The position numbers and the translations under genes are program-made. From assembly GCA_046597055.1 (NCBI GenBank), contig JBKJLC010000037.1:82150-146149 (forward strand): a DNA stretch of 64,000 nucleotides, given 5' to 3'. Below the pieces are notes generated by a model, which was not told where the DNA came from, did no database searches, and saw nothing but the letters and a program-made list of their open reading frames with translations. This document shows, in pieces, positions 29,944-42,680 of this stretch. How positions within the stretch are numbered: the stretch's first letter is position 1; each line of letters opens with the position of its first letter. The stretch comes from Kofleriaceae bacterium (lineage in GTDB: Bacteria; Myxococcota_A; Polyangia; Haliangiales; Haliangiaceae).

Positions 29944-30168
29944 CGGAGCCCGCCTCGCGGGTGTGCGCTTGCGGCGCAGTGGTGGCGCACGTCGCGCTTC
30001 TGCTTCTCGGTTCGCGCGCCCACGCTGCGAGGTGGGCGCGTCTCGGCGCGAGACCTGCGGGTCACGACACCAGGTGATCGCCAGGCCCACGATGGCGCCA
30101 TGGTGCTCGGCGTACGGGCGGTGTTATCAAGCCTCGATGTTGCTCGCGCGCGCTCGGATCCCCTCGGC

Positions 30169-30849
30169 ATGACCACGCCCGACGACCCGAACGTGCTCCG
30201 CACCACCGCCGGGGACATGCCGCTCGAGGAGATCGAGCTGGTCGTGGCGGGGCGTACCTGGACGGTCCTGCACACCGGCGCGGTCATCAGCCGCGAGCAG
30301 GAGCAGGCGTTCTTGCGCGGTCAGACCACGACCCGGTGGCCGTACGGCATCGTGGTGTGGCCCGCGGCGATCGCGCTCGCGCACGAGGTCGCTTCGCGCC
30401 ACCTCGCCGGGAAGCGCATCCTCGAGCTCGGCGCCGGGACCGGCCTGCCCGGCATCGTTGCCGCCGGGCTCGATGCGCGCGTGGTGCAGACCGACCGGCA
30501 GCAGGTCGCGCTGCACGTGTGCAGGCTGAACGCGGAACGCAACGGCGTCACGACGATCGACCACCGGCTCGCGGACTGGACCGCATGGGACGACACCGAG
30601 CGCTACGACGTCATCCTCGGCGCAGACGTGCTCTATGCCGAGCCGCTCCACGCCCACCTGCGGCACATCTTCGCGACCAACCTCGCCCCGGGTGGAACGG
30701 TGCTGCTCGCCGACCCGTTCCGCAAGCCGAGCCTGCGCTTCCTGGAAGCGATGGAGGCCGAGGGGTGGCAGGTCACGCTCGACAAGTGGACCGTGGGGGT
30801 CACCCCACCCCCGCGGTCCGTCGGCGTCTACGCGTTGACGCGGACCTGA
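30169..30849 (+). CDS. Class I SAM-dependent methyltransferase (protein/lysine MTase-like)
   Basis: PYGIVVWPAA, ILELGAGTGLPG, ILGADVLY, LLADP. Confidence 0.85.
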   Translation: MTTPDDPNVLRTTAGDMPLEEIELVVAGRTWTVLHTGAVISREQEQAFLRGQTTTRWPYGIVVWPAAIALAHEVASRHLAGKRILELGAGTGLPGIVAAGLDARVVQTDRQQVALHVCRLNAERNGVTTIDHRLADWTAWDDTERYDVILGADVLYAEPLHAHLRHIFATNLAPGGTVLLADPFRKPSLRFLEAMEAEGWQVTLDKWTVGVTPPPRSVGVYALTRT

Positions 30850-30918: not shown

Positions 30919-31239
30919 TCAGATCATGTCTTTGAGGGCCTTGAGCGGCCGGACCTTGATCTTGGTCGTCGCCTTGCGCGCGGCCACGTTCATGGTCTCG
31001 CCGGGCTTGAAGGGGTTCGGCACGTTCTTGCGCGCGGGCCGCGCCGGCACGGCCTTCTTCTCGATCTTGACCAGGCCCGGCAGGGCGAACACGCCGGGGC
31101 CTCGCTTGCCCAGGTTCTTCGCGATCTCGGCGACCAGTGCGTCGAAGACCTGGCTGACCTGCTTGCGGGTCAGCTGAGTCTCCTCGGCAATCGCGGTGAA
31201 AATCTCGGTCTTGGTAGCTGCCTTCGGTGCGTTCGCCAT
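30919..31239 (-). CDS. HU/IHF family DNA-binding protein
   Basis: TKTEIF..IAEET, LPGLVKI, PARPAR..PNPF, KVRPLKALKD; GGAG RBS. Confidence 0.88.
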   Translation of the reverse strand: MANAPKAATKTEIFTAIAEETQLTRKQVSQVFDALVAEIAKNLGKRGPGVFALPGLVKIEKKAVPARPARKNVPNPFKPGETMNVAARKATTKIKVRPLKALKDMI

Positions 31240-33930: not shown

Positions 33931-34557
33931 ATGATGCGCAGCCCCGTCGTGATCGCGATCGCCGCACTGGCCCTCGCCGCCTGTGAGTCCGAGGGCGACA
34001 TGCCCGCCACCGCCGCCGCCGGGGCGGTGCCGCCGGCCAAGGTGTCGGTGGAGGTGCCGAAGACCGCCGTCAGGCCCGAGCACTTCGACCTGGCGGGGAC
34101 CGCCGACCTCGTCCGCGACAACCGCGTGAAGAATGGTGCCGAGCTCGAGGTGCAGCTCAACAAGAACACCCGGAACCGGGTCGATGTCGATGCCGACGGC
34201 AAGCGCGACCGCCTGCAGGTGGTCGAGGTCCGCACCGGCGCCGCGCGGACCCTCGAGGTCCGGGCGGTGCCCTCGAGTCAGCGCGGCGCGGCGGCCGCCC
34301 AGGCGGCGGTGCCGGTCGCCGTGGTCGAGCTCGCGCCGGCGGGCGACCGCGCCCACGTGACGGTCGGGTACGCCGACGTGGTCGTCGTGGACGAGCCGGT
34401 CGTGGTCACGTTCGACGCCCCGATCGTGGTCGGCGGCTTCTGTCACTGGGTGCTCGTCGTGGAGCGGCCGATCTTCATCGGGGTGGCCGTCGTGGTCGTG
34501 CCCGCGCGCTCCGAGCACTCCAAACACAAGAAGCACAAGCAGCACAAATGGAAGTAA
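33931..34557 (+). CDS. Hypothetical lipoprotein with His/Lys-rich C-terminus
   Basis: Lipobox LAAC; DVDADGKRD loop; HSKHKKHKQHKWK tail. Confidence 0.8.
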   Translation: MMRSPVVIAIAALALAACESEGDMPATAAAGAVPPAKVSVEVPKTAVRPEHFDLAGTADLVRDNRVKNGAELEVQLNKNTRNRVDVDADGKRDRLQVVEVRTGAARTLEVRAVPSSQRGAAAAQAAVPVAVVELAPAGDRAHVTVGYADVVVVDEPVVVTFDAPIVVGGFCHWVLVVERPIFIGVAVVVVPARSEHSKHKKHKQHKWK

Positions 34558-34593
34558 CCACGACCGGTCGCGCCGCGCGCGCCCTGGTGAACG

Positions 34594-35475
34594 TCAGCCA
34601 CGCCAGGCGATCGTCACGAGCTCCCTGAGCCGCGCCGGGTCGCTCGCCGACGTCTTGCACATGAAGCCGCTCTTGTGCGCGAAGTGCACGTCGGGCTGGC
34701 CCTCGACTCGGGAGAAGTCGAGGCCGGGATGGTCCTCGTAGCGGCCGATGCCGAAGCCGTCGCCGCGTCGGTCCGGATACACGATGGCGGCGATGACCGC
34801 GTCGAGCTTCCGGGCCCGGATGTAGCTGCCGAGCATGGCGCTGGGCTCGTCGGCGGCGGGCTCGGTGCGCGGCAGGAACAGGGCCTCGACCCGGTCCTCG
34901 CCACAGGCGATCGTCCACCGCTCGACGCGCTGGTCGATGAAGTCGAGGCGCTCGCGAGCGACGCGCAGGTACTCGAGCAGGTCGGCGCCGACCATCCTCA
35001 TGAACAGGTAGAGCGGATCGGTGGGCTCGAGCCGGGTCGCCTGCGCGAAGCGACGCAGCAGCGTCAGGTCGATCGGCGAGTTGAGCTGGGAGATCGCGCG
35101 GCGCGGCACACCCAGCCACTCGCCGGTCTTCTTGGGGCCGCGCGAATCGAACCACTCCGCGGTCTCGAGCCAGTCGCAGAACTGCAGCGCGTCCTGGTAC
35201 AGACCCAGGTGATCAAGGACCAGGCTGAGCGCGCAGGTCGGCGGGTGCTCGCGCGCGAAGTGGTGGTGGTCGAAGTTCGAGCGCGCCGGGTCGTGGATCC
35301 CGCCGATGTCGACCACGGCGACCGCGGGATCGTCGAGCTCGGCGGCCGTGGGCTCGCGGCGGACGATGGGACAGCCATGGAGCGCCGCCAGGACACAGAC
35401 GGCGAGCAGGTCGTCCTTGTGAGCGCCGCCGGGATGCGTGACGATCGTGTGCACGTGGGTCGCGCACCCTACCAT
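34594..35475 (-). CDS. MYG1-like (DHH superfamily) hydrolase/exonuclease
   Basis: THPGGAHKDD, VVDIGG..DP...FDHHH, FAHKSGF parallel MYG1 motifs; ATG overlaps upstream TGA. Confidence 0.75.
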   Translation of the reverse strand: MVGCATHVHTIVTHPGGAHKDDLLAVCVLAALHGCPIVRREPTAAELDDPAVAVVDIGGIHDPARSNFDHHHFAREHPPTCALSLVLDHLGLYQDALQFCDWLETAEWFDSRGPKKTGEWLGVPRRAISQLNSPIDLTLLRRFAQATRLEPTDPLYLFMRMVGADLLEYLRVARERLDFIDQRVERWTIACGEDRVEALFLPRTEPAADEPSAMLGSYIRARKLDAVIAAIVYPDRRGDGFGIGRYEDHPGLDFSRVEGQPDVHFAHKSGFMCKTSASDPARLRELVTIAWRG

Positions 35476-36506
35476 CACGCGCCCGCGTCCGATTCGACCG
35501 ATGCGTCGATCATGGTGAGCGCGAGCCAGTTCTCGGCCAGCTCGCGCGCTGTCTGCTTCCGGTGTGCGGGCACCGAGATCCGGTGCTGCCAGCCGCCATC
35601 GCCGGTGAGATCGAAGCGGCCCCACGAGCGGATCGCCCCGAGCGCCTCGAGCTCGCGGATCAGCCCGCGCGCGGTGCCGTCGTAGCGGCCGCGGGTGTGG
35701 TCGTCGTCGCCGGCGATGATCAGCGTCGTGCCGGCCGGGGGATCGTCGGCAAGATCGGTGATCCGATCGACCGCCTCCGCGTCGGTGGCTGCATCGCCGA
35801 TCGCGCGCACCGCGCCCCGCGCCTCGGCGAACAGCGCGCCCGCCGCGCGCTTGGTCAGCCGCGCGACATCGCGTGAGGGCGGCGCCGGGGCCGCCAGGTA
35901 GAAGGGCTCGGGATCGCCCATGCGAACGCCGTCGAGGCCGATCCGGGTGCCGAGCGCGAGTCGGGACAGCCAGCGCAACCAGGCCGGCATCGCCGCGCGG
36001 GGCGGCGCGGCGCGCAGCTCGGGATCGGTGACCAGCGGCACCGCGAGCAGGAGGGCCCAGCCGAAGCTGCCGAACCAGCCGAGCCCGTTGTGGCCGAGCG
36101 CGCGCGCCCGCACGAACCGGCGCACATGGGGCCAGGCGGCCTGGAACACCTCGTCGCGGCCGTGGTCGCGCAGGTGGGCGACCAGCAGCGCCGCGTCCCG
36201 CGGGCCGGCCCGCATGCGGCGCGCGAGGTCATCGTCGCCGGTCACGACCGTGACGTCGACCGAGACGCCCTCGAGGGTGCCATGCATGCGTGGCGGCAGG
36301 GTCGGGATGAGCGTCAGCCCGAGCGCGGCGGCGAGGCGCGCCGGATCGTCGTCCGAGACCAGCACGTCGACGTCGCCGGCGTGGGCCGGTGCGTAGACGC
36401 TCGAGCCGTACGGCTCGACGACGGCGCGCGGATCCGCGACGGCGCGCACCCGCGCGAGGACGCGCGCCGCGGGTGGGGAGCTCGAGTCGTGCGCTGATCC
36501 CGTCAT
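35475..36506 (-). CDS. Pol-beta nucleotidyltransferase resembling canonical poly(A) polymerase
   Basis: YGS..DVD and third Asp in VSVDV; VRRFVRARALGHNGLGWFGSFGWALLLA resembles the PAP central domain. Confidence 0.65.
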   Translation of the reverse strand: MTGSAHDSSSPPAARVLARVRAVADPRAVVEPYGSSVYAPAHAGDVDVLVSDDDPARLAAALGLTLIPTLPPRMHGTLEGVSVDVTVVTGDDDLARRMRAGPRDAALLVAHLRDHGRDEVFQAAWPHVRRFVRARALGHNGLGWFGSFGWALLLAVPLVTDPELRAAPPRAAMPAWLRWLSRLALGTRIGLDGVRMGDPEPFYLAAPAPPSRDVARLTKRAAGALFAEARGAVRAIGDAATDAEAVDRITDLADDPPAGTTLIIAGDDDHTRGRYDGTARGLIRELEALGAIRSWGRFDLTGDGGWQHRISVPAHRKQTARELAENWLALTMIDASVESDAGA

Positions 36507-36766
36507 CACGCGCAGGAGACCGTGGCGCGGGCGTGGGCGCCAGCGTTCTCGCACATCTTGATCTGCCCCCGTGAGCGGCTGCTGCGAGCGCGCCCCCCCG
36601 TCGCCTGGTCGGCCGGGGCGCGCCAGCGCATCGCGCGCGGTCCGGGGGCGGGTGAACCGTTCAGGTCGGGCGCTGAACGGTGCAGCTCGGACGCTGGACC
36701 GTCCGCGCCGGGCCGGGGCCCGCGGTCGGATCGGGTCGATCTGCGGAGAATCAAACCAGGGCCAGC

Positions 36767-36782
36767 TGGTGCGGCGCTTGCT
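36767..36782 (+). promoter_or_regulatory. Sigma-54 promoter with upstream TGAAC-N-GTTCA-type palindromes
   Basis: TGGTGCGGCGCTTGCT; TGAACCGTTCA (36653-36663) and TGAACGGTGCA (36674-36684); GTG 14 nt after the -12 C. Confidence 0.65.
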
Positions 36783-36794
36783 CGACATCGAGAC

Positions 36795-37592
36795 GTGCCC
36801 AAGTCGTCCGTGCGTCCGCGAGTCCGGTTCTGGTTGCTGGCCGCCGCGTGGCTGGCCGCGTGCGGGACGGTCGAATCCGAGCCCGTGGCGGCGGTCGACG
36901 CGTCGTCGCCCGACGCCATGTCCACCGATGCCATGGCGGCGCCCGACGCCGCGGTGCTGACCGCGGCCTGCAGCCAGGATCCGAGCTGCGGCGAGGTCGA
37001 GACGATCTCGTCCGTGGACGACCTGATCGCGGTGACCCGGCGCTGTCCGACCTGGGACGCGGTGCTGGTCGATCGCTACCGCAACCGGACCGCGACGATC
37101 CGCGTCGGGTCGGACATCGAGGTGTGCGTGGGCCACATCCCGCTGCCGCTCGACTGCTCGGGAGGCATCCCGTGCGAGGCGGGCGTGCGCCTGGAGGTGG
37201 ACCGGTTCCTGGCGGGTGTCGACAGCAGCGTCGGGTGCCCGGGCGGCGTGGTGCTGGCGGCGGGGGCGCGCTTCCGGATCCGCTACGACGTCATGCCGGG
37301 CGGGCAACGCAGTCAATTCCGGGTTCCGAACCTGCGCTTCGAGCGCGCCTGCGACGCGGCCTGCAGCCCGAGCGAGCGCCGCTGCGACGGCAACGGCGGC
37401 TGCTACCCCGCGGACGAGGTGTGCTTCGCGTGCGGTCGCGGCACCCAGGAGCAGTGTGCGTGCCGGTCGCCCGACAACGGTGTCATTGGCGACTGCGAGT
37501 CGTGCGCGATCCGCGGCGAGGGAACCGTGTCCCCCGGTCACTGCCTCGGCGGGAGCTGCACGCGCGACGCGTGCGCGACCTGCCCGTGCTGA
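36795..37592 (+). CDS. Cys-rich hypothetical lipoprotein
   Basis: Lipobox LAAC; many Cys in the C-terminal half. Confidence 0.75.
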   Translation: MPKSSVRPRVRFWLLAAAWLAACGTVESEPVAAVDASSPDAMSTDAMAAPDAAVLTAACSQDPSCGEVETISSVDDLIAVTRRCPTWDAVLVDRYRNRTATIRVGSDIEVCVGHIPLPLDCSGGIPCEAGVRLEVDRFLAGVDSSVGCPGGVVLAAGARFRIRYDVMPGGQRSQFRVPNLRFERACDAACSPSERRCDGNGGCYPADEVCFACGRGTQEQCACRSPDNGVIGDCESCAIRGEGTVSPGHCLGGSCTRDACATCPC

Positions 37593-40647: not shown

Positions 40648-40904
40648 GCGAGCTGCACACGTCGACGGTGCAACGCATGCATCGCGTCCTGGGCGCGGAC
40701 CGTGCCGACAGACTGCTGCGCGATGGCCTCGCCGCGATCGGGTGCGATCAGCTCGAGACGGCTGACGACCTGTACCGGTTCGCGCTGTGGCTCGGCACGA
40801 GCACTGGCTTCGAACAAGCCCTCGGCAGCCTGCTCGCCGTGCAGGCCGTCATGCGCGGCGCCGGACGGAAAGTCACGGATCCGGACGACGCGGCAGGACG
40901 CTAG
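40644..40904 (+). CDS. Small hypothetical protein (86 aa)
   Basis: GTGA overlap with the PAS gene; coding-like codon usage. Confidence 0.65.
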   Translation: MSELHTSTVQRMHRVLGADRADRLLRDGLAAIGCDQLETADDLYRFALWLGTSTGFEQALGSLLAVQAVMRGAGRKVTDPDDAAGR

Positions 40905-41640
40905 CCTCGCCGCGAGTCGTCGGAGCTCCGGTCGAGCCGCCGCGCGCCAGCTGGCGGGACCGGCCGTAGACGAGGGCGACGTAGAGGACGTCGAAGCAGA
41001 GGATGCCAGCGTAGAGCGTGAGGAGCAGCGGCGCGATCGGGTGGTAGGCCGCGGGGAGCAGCGCGTCCCAGTGCTCGTGGAGCGTCGGCGGCGACCAGAA
41101 CAGGGCGAGCACGAACGCGAAGAAGCTGCCGAGCAGCTTGGCGACGCCGATGGACACCGACTGGCCGCGCAGGCTGTCGCGGCGCAGGAACATGCACACG
41201 AACAGGATGGACATCATCAGGTTCTGGCCGAACGCGGCGTACCAGCCGATCGCGTCGTCGAGCTGGCGCACGAACGAGCCCAGGACGGCGAAGGCGAAGA
41301 CGATGATGCCGGTCAGGCCCAGGTGGAAGTAGCGGACCACGAACGGGTGCGAGAAGTCGGCGCGTCCGTAGCGGAAGCACTGCACCAGGATGCCGAGATC
41401 GAGCAGCGTCCACGGCAGCAGCATGGCGAGCCGCGCGTCGTAGACGCCATGGTGGAGCGTGACGCCGAGGAAGATCAGCTCCCAGGACAGGTTCGCGGCC
41501 AGGGCGACCAGCGGCATGCCATAGGCGCGATCGCGCGCCGCCTGGCGGAGAATGAGCACGTAGGTCAGGGTCCAGAACAGGCTGCTCAGCCCGCCGACGA
41601 GCAGTCCGAGCGTGTGATTGGCGTTGATGGCCGTGACCAT
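40873..41640 (-). CDS. Integral membrane terpene cyclase, Pyr4/PaxB/XiaE-like
   Basis: About 255 aa, multi-TM; W...Y..I.R....D..YGMPLVALAANLSWE, RGQS, KLLGS, C-terminal FDVLY. Confidence 0.8.
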   Translation of the reverse strand: MVTAINANHTLGLLVGGLSSLFWTLTYVLILRQAARDRAYGMPLVALAANLSWELIFLGVTLHHGVYDARLAMLLPWTLLDLGILVQCFRYGRADFSHPFVVRYFHLGLTGIIVFAFAVLGSFVRQLDDAIGWYAAFGQNLMMSILFVCMFLRRDSLRGQSVSIGVAKLLGSFFAFVLALFWSPPTLHEHWDALLPAAYHPIAPLLLTLYAGILCFDVLYVALVYGRSRQLARGGSTGAPTTRGEASVLPRRPDP

Positions 41641-41645
41641 GGGGC

Positions 41646-42680
41646 TCACGGCAGCCGGGGCGGCGTGGTCGGGGCGGTCGCGTGCAGGGCGACGTAGGGT
41701 TCGCCCGGGATGACCTTCTTGAACCTGACGTCGGTGAAGCCGGCCTCGCCCAGCTGGACCCGCAGCTCGGCCTCGGTCGGCAGCGGGCCCATCGCCGGTG
41801 TGCTGCTGGTCCACAGGTTGAGCACCCGCATCCCGGGCGAGCCGCCCTGGCACGAGGTCGTGAGGATCAGCCGGCCGCCGGGCACCAGCCGCGCGGCCAG
41901 CATGCGCAGGAACGGCACGCGCTCGGCCGTGGCCAGGTAGTAGATGACGTTGTAGAGCGTGACGACGTCGAAGCGCGCCGCGCTCGCCAGGGCGCGCACG
42001 TCACCGGTCTCGATCTGCACGCGGTCGTGCAGGCCCCAGCGCGCGATGGCGACGCGGCTGCTGGCGGCCACCTCCGGCTGCAGCTCGACCCCGACCGCCC
42101 GCAGCGCCGGGTTGCGACCGGCCGCGTACCGCAGGTAGGTCCCGGTGCCGCAGCCGACCTCGAGCAGGTGGATCGGGCCCGACGGCAGGGCCCAGTCGAT
42201 CGCCTGGAAGACGAACGGCTCCATGATGCGCGAGGAGCGGGCGATCAGCGCGCCGTCGTGCTCGCTTGGTTCCCACCGGCGCCGGGCGCGCAGGCGGGTC
42301 GGGGTCTCGACGATGAGCCGGTGGTGGAAGGTGGCGACCTCCTCGACCAGCGCGGCGATCTCGTCGTTGTCGACCTCGGCGAGGCGGCGCACCAGGTAGC
42401 CCCGGAGCCGATAGCCGTGGCGGTCGAGGCCGAGCTCGCCGAGACCCACGCCGAGGTCAAGCCACGCAGCCAGCGAGGCGCGACCGCCGTCGCCGGGCGC
42501 CAGCTCCGCGGCCAGCGCGTCGAGCGACCGTGGGCCCGCTGCGAGCAGCCCGAGCAGGCCGCTGCGGACCGCGGCGGCGGCGAAGCTGAGCCGGTAGAAC
42601 GGGGTGAACAGCTGGGTGACGTGCCACAGCAGGCGCAGTCGACCGCCGCGAACCAGGGCGAGCGCGGTCTTGCCGTTCAT
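41646..42680 (-). CDS. Class I SAM-dependent methyltransferase with N-terminal dimerisation-type region
   Basis: LLEVGCGTG, GVELQ, GDVR, FDVVTLYNVIYY, LVPGGRL. Confidence 0.88.
   Translation of the reverse strand: MNGKTALALVRGGRLRLLWHVTQLFTPFYRLSFAAAAVRSGLLGLLAAGPRSLDALAAELAPGDGGRASLAAWLDLGVGLGELGLDRHGYRLRGYLVRRLAEVDNDEIAALVEEVATFHHRLIVETPTRLRARRRWEPSEHDGALIARSSRIMEPFVFQAIDWALPSGPIHLLEVGCGTGTYLRYAAGRNPALRAVGVELQPEVAASSRVAIARWGLHDRVQIETGDVRALASAARFDVVTLYNVIYYLATAERVPFLRMLAARLVPGGRLILTTSCQGGSPGMRVLNLWTSSTPAMGPLPTEAELRVQLGEAGFTDVRFKKVIPGEPYVALHATAPTTPPRLP

Follow-up and report, generated by a model that had tools for sequence, protein, structure and literature searches.

We describe two neighbouring minus-strand genes, here called A and B, in a 64,000-nucleotide stretch of contig JBKJLC010000037.1 from a Kofleriaceae bacterium (assembly GCA_046597055.1); this whole stretch is referred to as the window. 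Gene A (protein P0001) probably encodes a compact, complete enzyme with the architecture of the canonical poly(A) polymerases (PAPs), active by prediction, and the sequence of gene B (P0002) identifies its product as a divergent DHH-family phosphoesterase of the MYG1 lineage. The canonical three-domain PAP is treated as a signature enzyme of eukaryotes, and bacteria are known for PcnB, which belongs to an unrelated class. The pairing of A and B is real and selected in some lineages, and it is facultative. We tentatively favour a reading in which the two products form a module that trims and re-extends RNA 3' ends. A first-pass annotation of the DNA had described a 343-amino-acid (aa) A with B downstream of it; both genes were found at those positions on the minus strand, and all of the motif strings it quoted are present in the two proteins.

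Gene A resembles the canonical poly(A) polymerases

P0001 holds PYGSS...GDVDV...VDV (with G34, S35, D45, D47 and D84), followed by VRRFVRARALGHNGLGWFGSFGWALLLA (residues 128-155), LAAPAPPSRD and GRYDGTARGLIRELE. The catalytic set of the Pol-beta-type nucleotidyltransferases (NTases), namely an hG[GS] turn, DxD and a third acidic residue, is present as G34-S35, D45-V-D47 and D84, and the acidic catalytic residues are kept across the family alignment. P0001 had no match in Pfam, NCBIfam or PADLOC, and a sequence search of the PDB gave nothing significant. A profile of 14 close stand-alone homologues (A2) reached PAP gamma in the PDB at an E value of 1.9, which is not significant, and the aligned segment consisted of the central-domain helix and a 'PAYP'-like turn. 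The first-pass annotation had drawn its parallel with canonical PAP from this segment; as a motif parallel alone it lacks significance, but the resemblance itself was borne out by structure and by the fused relatives of A. The whole-family profile (A1) matched yeast PAP at 5e-14 and the relative P0159 matched human PAP gamma at 9e-28, and it is only via such fused relatives that the link in sequence from A to PAP becomes significant.

When A was modelled with AlphaFold2 using alignment A1, the predicted local distance difference test score (pLDDT) was 93.4 and the predicted template modelling score 0.90. The model places the catalytic residues on the expected elements (strands E29-33, E46-51 and E81-88 and helix H35-38). 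In a Foldseek comparison, the canonical eukaryotic PAPs ranked at the top, with bovine PAP (1f5a) at an E value of 6.6e-13 and TMq of 0.67, together with yeast Pap1, S. pombe Pla1 and human PAP gamma. The archaeal class I CCA-adding enzymes ranked second (E 7e-9 to 8e-8, TMq 0.46-0.55), and TUT1, URT1, Cid1 and mtPAP came after them. In the 50 best rows of the VIA structure comparison, the canonical PAPs stood approximately 10 Z units above any other class and aligned to residues 7-343 of the A model (to approximately residues 490-535 of their own chains), whereas the terminal uridylyltransferases (TUTases), GLD-2 and Cid1 aligned only up to approximately residue 254. Neither these 50 rows nor the Foldseek matches listed for A contained OAS, cGAS or CD-NTase enzymes.

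Residues 93-250 or thereabouts superpose on the PAP central domain, which follows the NTase domain as it does in PAP, so the outcome named as fatal to the PAP assignment, a resemblance to NTases lacking this domain, does not apply. The model gives residues 260-340 a beta-alpha-beta-beta-alpha-beta topology, in keeping with the RRM-like RNA-binding domain at the C-terminus of PAP. As modelled, A has the three-domain build of canonical PAP, with NTase, central and RNA-binding domains, at 12-17% identity to the canonical PAPs in the structural alignments. The nearest neighbours of A in a protein language model were the eukaryotic PAP_central/PAP_NTPase clusters (0.94), then archaeal CCA enzymes (0.91). 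Because the fold ranking, the placement of the catalytic residues and these neighbours point the same way, A is probably a compact and complete PAP-type enzyme and is predicted to be active.

Fused relatives, distribution and descent of A

Homologues of A number 286 at E<=1e-3, and the 120 listed share 74-86% identity. A HMMER search of 1.84 billion cluster representatives (50%-identity clusters) returned 38 relatives; because there are just 38 in so large a set, the A family is small. Seven of the 38 are proteins of 726-1004 aa in which the A-like part lies at the C-terminus, and Pfam recognises MJ1316, endonuclease/exonuclease/phosphatase (EEP; Exo_endo_phos) and 2H (2_5_RNA_ligase2; 2'-5' RNA ligase/LigT phosphoesterase) domains in their N-terminal parts. 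One study (PMC6514570) describes the MJ1316 domain as recognising RNA 2',3'-cyclic-phosphate ends and refers to Burroughs & Aravind 2016 (Nucleic Acids Res 44:8525) for MJ1316 fusions in RNA repair. It is established by computation that the fused relatives carry domains of the kinds predicted to read and open 2',3'-cyclic phosphate ends and to remove phosphates.

The most divergent of the seven, P0159, matched PAP_NTPase (6e-9) and PAP_central (8e-18) in Pfam, and PAP_central was also matched by P0136, P0145 and P0148. The EEP part of profile A1 matched TDP2 at 4e-21 and Nocturnin, a CCR4-type enzyme, at 2e-7. With phmmer, the A module matches the fused forms at E values of 5e-61 to 3e-17, with 45-54% identity to those from Kofleriaceae. 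By Pfam, the MJ1316, EEP and 2H domains are all absent from P0001, which begins at the NTase domain, and MJ1316 had no match in its own genome (assembly 94% complete). In NCBI, the fused relatives go under names such as 'poly(A) polymerase', 'RNA repair domain-containing protein' and 'DUF504 domain-containing protein'; for example, P0126 is an 'RNA repair domain-containing protein [Kofleriaceae bacterium]' and P0287 a 'poly(A) polymerase [Streptomyces erythrochromogenes]'. The two Streptomyces proteins, P0287 and P0288, have the order MJ1316-EEP-2H-PAP over 954-991 aa, are both called 'poly(A) polymerase' in NCBI, and have an EEP part that is closest to TDP2 among solved structures.

All 53 A loci in contigs taken at one genome per species came from Kofleriaceae, Haliangiales or 'Myxococcales' metagenome-assembled genomes (MAGs). 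Within the family of the window, A was matched in 61/138 genomes and 4/17 genera, mainly in g1 (8/16) and g9 (50/91), with two or three of the 61 being weak and probably false. In the sample of 201 genomes from the phylum, Pfam PAP_central was matched in two, both times in open frames of approximately 900 aa. One Haliangiales MAG (JBBQEX01) holds a stand-alone A (L004) as well as an 812-aa fused form (L053:4823-5710), and four genomes (G026, G046, G047 and G069) have a second, weaker A match inside open frames of 814-1557 aa.

The PAP-like region was used for a maximum-likelihood tree, in which a clade of seven rows (support 100/100), made up of the stand-alone proteins, is nested within a 17-row clade (100/99) that includes the fused forms of Kofleriaceae. 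The group of Streptomyces and P0159 lies on the opposite side of the midpoint root, and three short rows that count as 'stand-alone' by length probably represent pieces of fused proteins. Most simply, though depending on the root, A would have arisen from four-domain proteins by loss or fission of the healing domains. Besides A, the genome of the window has three genes of the class II PolyA_pol/CCA family, and one of these matches (G000:C262:31773-32144, L058) lies in an open frame of 1435 aa, far above the usual length of a CCA-adding enzyme or PcnB.

Gene B is a divergent member of the MYG1 lineage

P0002 holds THPGGAHKDD, DIGG, FDHH and HKSGF. It matched Pfam MYG1_exonuc (PF03690) with 45.9 bits against a cut-off of 22.1, over positions 1-64 of the 318 of the model only, and in the six-frame search of the genome the same family scored 38.4 bits. 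In the PDB, chains named 'MYG1 exonuclease' were matched at 1.4e-3, likewise over the N-terminal part only; in all, sequence identifies just the N-terminal third of B. B has 3271 homologues. Among the MYG1 matches in the 201 sampled Myxococcota genomes, 14 were full-length canonical proteins and nine (that of the window included) were N-terminal-only matches with THPGGAHKDD, a subfamily found in 8/201 of the sampled genomes. An hhalign comparison of the divergent with the canonical subfamily gave a probability of 98.3% and an E value of 1.3e-14, over 84 columns only.

A joint alignment of 28 sequences, canonical bacterial MYG1 included, left H15, G17, H20, D22, R40, R41, D57, G59, F69, D70, H71, H72, D111, P235, F266, H268 and F272 invariant, a set that includes the DHH motif and the C-terminal histidine. 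In a study of human MYG1, catalysis and the preference for RNA are linked to this motif and to the C-terminal histidine, and the protein is described as a Mg-dependent 3'-5' exonuclease that prefers RNA (PMC6582341). Judged from its sequence, B is a divergent DHH phosphoesterase of the MYG1 lineage whose active site is intact, and the MYG1-like character given to it in the first-pass annotation stands, on the Pfam score as well as on the invariant DHH residues. By analogy, its activity is most likely that of a metal-dependent 3'-5' exoribonuclease.

The AlphaFold2 model of B (pLDDT 90.6) found only DHH/DHHA1 proteins as structural matches, with no solved MYG1 chain returned by either fold search. 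The best Foldseek matches were the pGpG phosphodiesterase PggH (E 3.2e-6) and NrnA-type nanoRNases, and these matches bear on a further explanation, which is that A makes a linear or cyclic oligonucleotide signal, as OAS, cGAS and the CD-NTases do, and that B degrades it in the way of GdpP, PggH, NrnA or Rv2837c. OAS/cGAS-type enzymes have an NTase followed by a PAP-central-like helical domain, a pairing of domains also present in A. However, A has a C-terminal RNA-binding-type domain, the canonical PAPs lead its structure comparison by the wide margin given above with none of the signalling enzymes in the 50 best rows, and its relatives are fused to domains for healing RNA ends. Furthermore, PADLOC gave no match for A and one that is not significant for B (E 0.011, 11.6 bits), and no effector gene adjoins the pair. 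A nucleotide signal is therefore a very improbable product of the pair.

In other Myxococcota families, genes of approximately 280-340 aa lie beside the divergent B, and these were considered as hidden homologues of A and rejected, being a SAICAR synthetase, a collagen-like protein, a methyltransferase, a purple acid phosphatase and a START-domain protein. For one such neighbour, hhalign against A1 gave a probability of 0.1%.

Pairing of A and B

At the junction, the coding strand reads GGC GCG TGA TGG, in which the TGA of A (35477-35475) shares two bases with a GTG (35478-35476) and one with an ATG (35475-35473). The candidate starts of B in the window are 35478, 35475 and 35454. Because most homologues of B are 286-287 aa long and start with M-x-H-T-I, the start may be the GTG at 35454, 20 nt past the stop of A, in which case the genes would be tightly linked and would not overlap. 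The overlap of TGA and ATG described in the first-pass annotation is thus present as a single base within GTGATG, but it would not be an overlap of the actual stop and start if B begins at 35454. In the window and in the loci with the order B->A, the stop of the first gene overlaps or abuts a start of the next on the same strand, as in a translationally coupled operon. A and B are one predicted transcription unit whichever start of B holds, and they are probably translationally coupled.

Family-wide searches found both genes in 37 genomes, and in nine of these they are adjacent on one strand; an adjacency confined to this genome, the other outcome named as fatal, thus does not apply either. 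The order is A->B in the genome of the window and in G034, and B->A in G032, G074, G080, G084, G087, G090 and G104. In four further genomes (G040, G068, G082 and G089), A and B are 3-6 kb apart on one strand; of the remaining genomes with both, one has them 590 kb apart and the others on different contigs. The adjacent junctions are all tight: GTGATG in the window and, where the order is B->A, ATGA (four loci), GTGA, TTGA or TGAATG. In g9, 36 of the 91 genomes have both genes, 14 only A, 11 only B and 30 neither; these counts include G037 and G038, which are flagged unpublished, and without them become 35, 13, 11 and 30 of 89. This co-occurrence is above the expectation under independence and is weak evidence for a link between the genes.

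Another explanation of these patterns is that the two genes have independent functions and became neighbours through an operon accident of particular lineages, in a family whose gene order is very fluid. Apart from B, the genes around A are not conserved (the 547 called genes at 54 loci fall into 400 clusters), most genomes with both genes keep them apart, and each gene is common without the other. On the other hand, B lies within 6.5 kb of A in 13/37 genomes of 6-13 Mb, far above random placement; both orders occur, and every adjacent junction overlaps or spans no more than approximately 20 nt, despite differing surroundings. We consider independent functions unlikely.

The A and B of the window are closest to those at G034:C156:10064-11960, in the other genus g9, with 86% and 89% identity and the same A->B order. 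The A copies of its own genus are at most 81% identical to the A of the window, and B is missing from those genomes. This suggests that the pair moved from one genus to another or that the binning is at fault, the latter being considered because the assembly is 7.6% contaminated.

Proposed function

In the mechanism that we propose, A and B would be a co-transcribed unit that remodels RNA 3' ends. A would act as a template-independent RNA 3'-nucleotidyltransferase, B would trim away 3' nucleotides that are damaged or in excess, exposing a 3'-OH, and A would then add nucleotides back onto the trimmed end. Together they could set the 3'-end state of stable RNAs, such as tRNA-like or rRNA-like substrates, after damage. 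The fused relatives would first heal broken RNA 3' ends and afterwards extend them, and in genomes with the pair B may substitute for the healing domains lost by A. Presumed in this scheme are the RNA nature of the substrate, the sequence of trimming and extension, the identity of the added nucleotide and any direct contact of A with B.

Several observations weigh against the scheme. Since the healing domains of the fused relatives are missing from A, the idea of repair would be carried over from those proteins by analogy. In 28 of the 37 genomes with both genes they are not adjacent, and 41 of the 53 retrieved A loci have no B in the retrieved DNA, with B adjacent in eight and 3-6 kb upstream in four (counts that overlap with the genome-wide ones and are not independent of them). 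In the genus of the window, 8/16 other genomes carry A and none of these eight carries B, so that A evidently works in its absence. In other Myxococcota families, the divergent B subfamily adjoins unrelated genes, and thus B works without A. The excess of co-occurrence in g9 may be partly phylogenetic, as genomes of one family are not independent, and the two gene orders could come from one tandem duplication and not from two independent juxtapositions. The nearest Foldseek folds of B are those of nanoRNases and dinucleotide phosphodiesterases (PggH and NrnA) and not of exonucleases acting on long RNA, in a comparison from which solved MYG1 was absent.

The same structural and linkage evidence would also fit a role in RNA decay or surveillance, in which A tails structured or defective RNAs and the tail becomes a landing site for B or for other 3'-5' exonucleases. 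Such tail-to-degrade logic is found in PcnB with PNPase and RNase R in bacteria and in TRAMP with the exosome in eukaryotes. The PAP fold with its RNA-binding domain suits processive tailing, and the EEP domain of the fused relatives, being related to TDP2 and to the CCR4-type Nocturnin, would suit the adding and removing of tails across the family. MYG1 is itself a 3'-5' RNA exonuclease according to the human study (PMC6582341). However, the three class II PolyA_pol-family genes of the genome mean that housekeeping tailing is probably covered, A is accessory and patchy (61/138 family genomes, 4/17 genera), and the cyclic-phosphate end reader and 2H cyclic phosphodiesterase of the fused relatives point to damaged ends and not to bulk decay. 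We regard a tail-to-degrade role as doubtful, although it is the chief alternative to our reading.

The first-pass annotation had offered three explanations for the pair: RNA tailing and trimming, the nucleotide signal discussed above, and a toxin-antitoxin-like pair. In the last of these, a nuclease or phosphoesterase would neutralise an RNA-modifying NTase toxin, or the roles would be swapped. Toxins and antitoxins with an NTase fold are known (MenT and MNT), and A and B are two small genes with an overlapping junction. The genes are not obligately together, however, as A alone (14) and B alone (11) among the 91 g9 genomes and A without B in 8/16 other genomes of its own genus show; A is a full three-domain PAP-like enzyme by its model and not a minimal NTase, and neither gene had a significant PADLOC match. 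A toxin-antitoxin pair is hardly credible on these grounds, and RNA tailing and trimming is the favoured one of the three. The writer/eraser module imagined for that case was upheld in so far as the tight adjacency recurs, but it has to be a facultative one, given the nine adjacent pairs in 37 genomes and the lone A of the own genus.

Tentatively, then, we retain the trimming and re-extension of RNA 3' ends as the function of the pair.

The locus and its neighbours

The window has a G+C content of 72% and lies on a contig of 146 kb in an assembly of 8.4 Mb (94% complete). A caller based on codon positions (GC3/GC2) recovers precisely the frames and starts of A and B, and because of this and of their many homologues the two are genuine genes and not chance open reading frames. 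The features of the pair are given in Table 1.

Table 1. Coordinates in the window of genes A and B, their predicted domains and the regions between genes.
Feature	Position	Strand	Description or basis
Gene A (P0001)	35475-36506	minus	343 aa, stand-alone canonical-PAP-like nucleotidyltransferase (predicted)
Gene B (P0002)	34594-35478	minus	294 aa, or 286 aa from GTG at 35454; divergent MYG1/DHH-family phosphoesterase (predicted)
A residues 29-88, Pol-beta-type NTase core (G34-S35, D45-x-D47, D84)	36243-36422	minus	sequence, model, family alignment
A residues ~93-250, helical PAP-central-like domain (VRRFVRARALGHNGLGWFGSFGWALLLA; APAPPSRD)	35757-36230	minus	structure match, Pfam matches of relatives
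A residues ~251-343, C-terminal domain equivalent to PAP RNA-binding domain	35478-35756	minus	secondary structure, structural alignment
Junction GTGATG, stop of A over candidate GTG and ATG starts of B	35473-35478	minus	sequence
B residues 178-294, DHHA1-like C-terminal domain with H-K-S-G-F motif	34597-34947	minus	
Intergenic region between A (-) and lipoprotein-like gene (+); presumed promoter region of the A-B unit	36507-36809		gene calls

The flanking genes, one convergent (33931-34557, plus strand) and one divergent (36810-37592, plus strand), are unrelated to the pair. The divergent gene encodes a cysteine-rich protein of 260 aa that has a lipoprotein-type signal (LLAAAWLAACG) and matches nothing in Pfam. 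A scan of 34300-37000 found no sigma-70-like promoter consensus, and the sole terminator-like site in it (36770-36755, minus strand) lies upstream of A and matches no gene end. An open frame of 688 codons upstream of A was discarded by the codon-position caller. The 345 open codons upstream of the ATG of A were considered as a remnant of the healing domains and rejected, since their codon statistics are non-coding, the plus-strand gene at 36810-37592 is present, and the homologues start alike.

By Pfam, the genes further around are likewise unrelated; among them are those for a PAS hybrid histidine kinase, a universal stress protein, a methyltransferase, HU and DUF1801, besides membrane and lipoprotein-like proteins. 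A 258-aa membrane protein (40873-41649, minus strand) matched the Pyr4-like transmembrane terpene cyclases (PF25129, E 3.7e-26), which is unexpected in a myxobacterium; the Pyr4-like family is known from fungal meroterpenoid pathways. A 242-aa protein (30121-30849, plus strand), which adjoins the HU-like gene at 30919-31239 (minus strand), had its best match to Methyltransf_16, a lysine methyltransferase family (E 3.7e-15), and this family is mostly eukaryotic.

Significance

A limited literature search turned up no paper that treats a bacterial PAP of the canonical type or a pairing of PAP with MYG1. The pair had been called undescribed in the first-pass annotation, and this can be said of the stand-alone 343-aa form, for which database annotation is 'hypothetical' only, but not of its fused relatives, which NCBI already names 'poly(A) polymerase' or 'RNA repair domain-containing protein'. 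What appears to be new here is the stand-alone form, which escapes Pfam and NCBIfam, and its operon with a divergent MYG1.

A enlarges a small, uncharacterised set of bacterial PAP-like RNA-end enzymes and would offer structural and mechanistic studies a minimal PAP of natural origin. The recurrent tight coupling of A and a MYG1-like gene provides a testable hypothesis on the role of bacterial MYG1 and on the repair or marking of RNA 3' ends in myxobacteria. A properly rooted phylogeny that includes A-type proteins would help to tell where the polyadenylation enzyme of eukaryotes came from. A far bolder reading, which we regard as improbable, is that Kofleriaceae have a self-contained eukaryote-style writer and eraser of RNA 3' ends, with a minimal PAP in complex with a MYG1-type exonuclease, and that the bacterial PAP-like clade (stand-alone and four-domain forms of Myxococcota and Streptomyces) is the sister or source of eukaryotic canonical PAP and not a recent import. 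If this were true, the enzyme that polyadenylates eukaryotic mRNA would descend from a bacterial RNA-repair nucleotidyltransferase.

Comparison with known systems

The proteins closest to A in predicted build are the canonical eukaryotic PAPs (mammalian PAP alpha and gamma, yeast Pap1 and S. pombe Pla1), with which it has the NTase, central and C-terminal RNA-binding-type domains in common. In contrast to them, A is stripped down, with 343 aa against an aligned range of roughly 440-490 residues, has only 12-17% identity and no Pfam match, and is a bacterial protein without cleavage and polyadenylation partners. Its NTase module is homologous to that of the MJ1316-EEP-2H-PAP proteins and nested among them in the tree, but A lacks their three N-terminal end-healing domains and is coupled to a MYG1-like gene in some genomes, whereas no MYG1-like gene was found within 6 kb of L053, the one fused locus examined.

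The archaeal class I CCA-adding enzymes belong to the same superfamily as A and have a similar multi-domain layout, although their match to A is clearly weaker than that of the canonical PAPs and none of them is among the 50 best VIA rows. With PcnB and the class II CCA-adding enzymes (PF01743), A may have its reaction class in common, the untemplated addition to RNA 3' ends, but it is a different class of NTase with other accessory domains.

B scores above the Pfam threshold for human and yeast MYG1 (PF03690, UPF0160) and has H-x-G-x-x-H-x-D-D, D-x-G-G, F-D-H-H and the C-terminal H-x-x-G-F invariant. Unlike MYG1, it aligns over only the first 85 or so columns, carries THPGGAHKDD instead of THSGxFHADD and, at approximately 290 aa, has a different helical middle part. 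It is also near to the DHH-DHHA1 nanoRNases and dinucleotide phosphodiesterases (NrnA, PggH, Rv2837c/CnpB and GdpP) and to RecJ.

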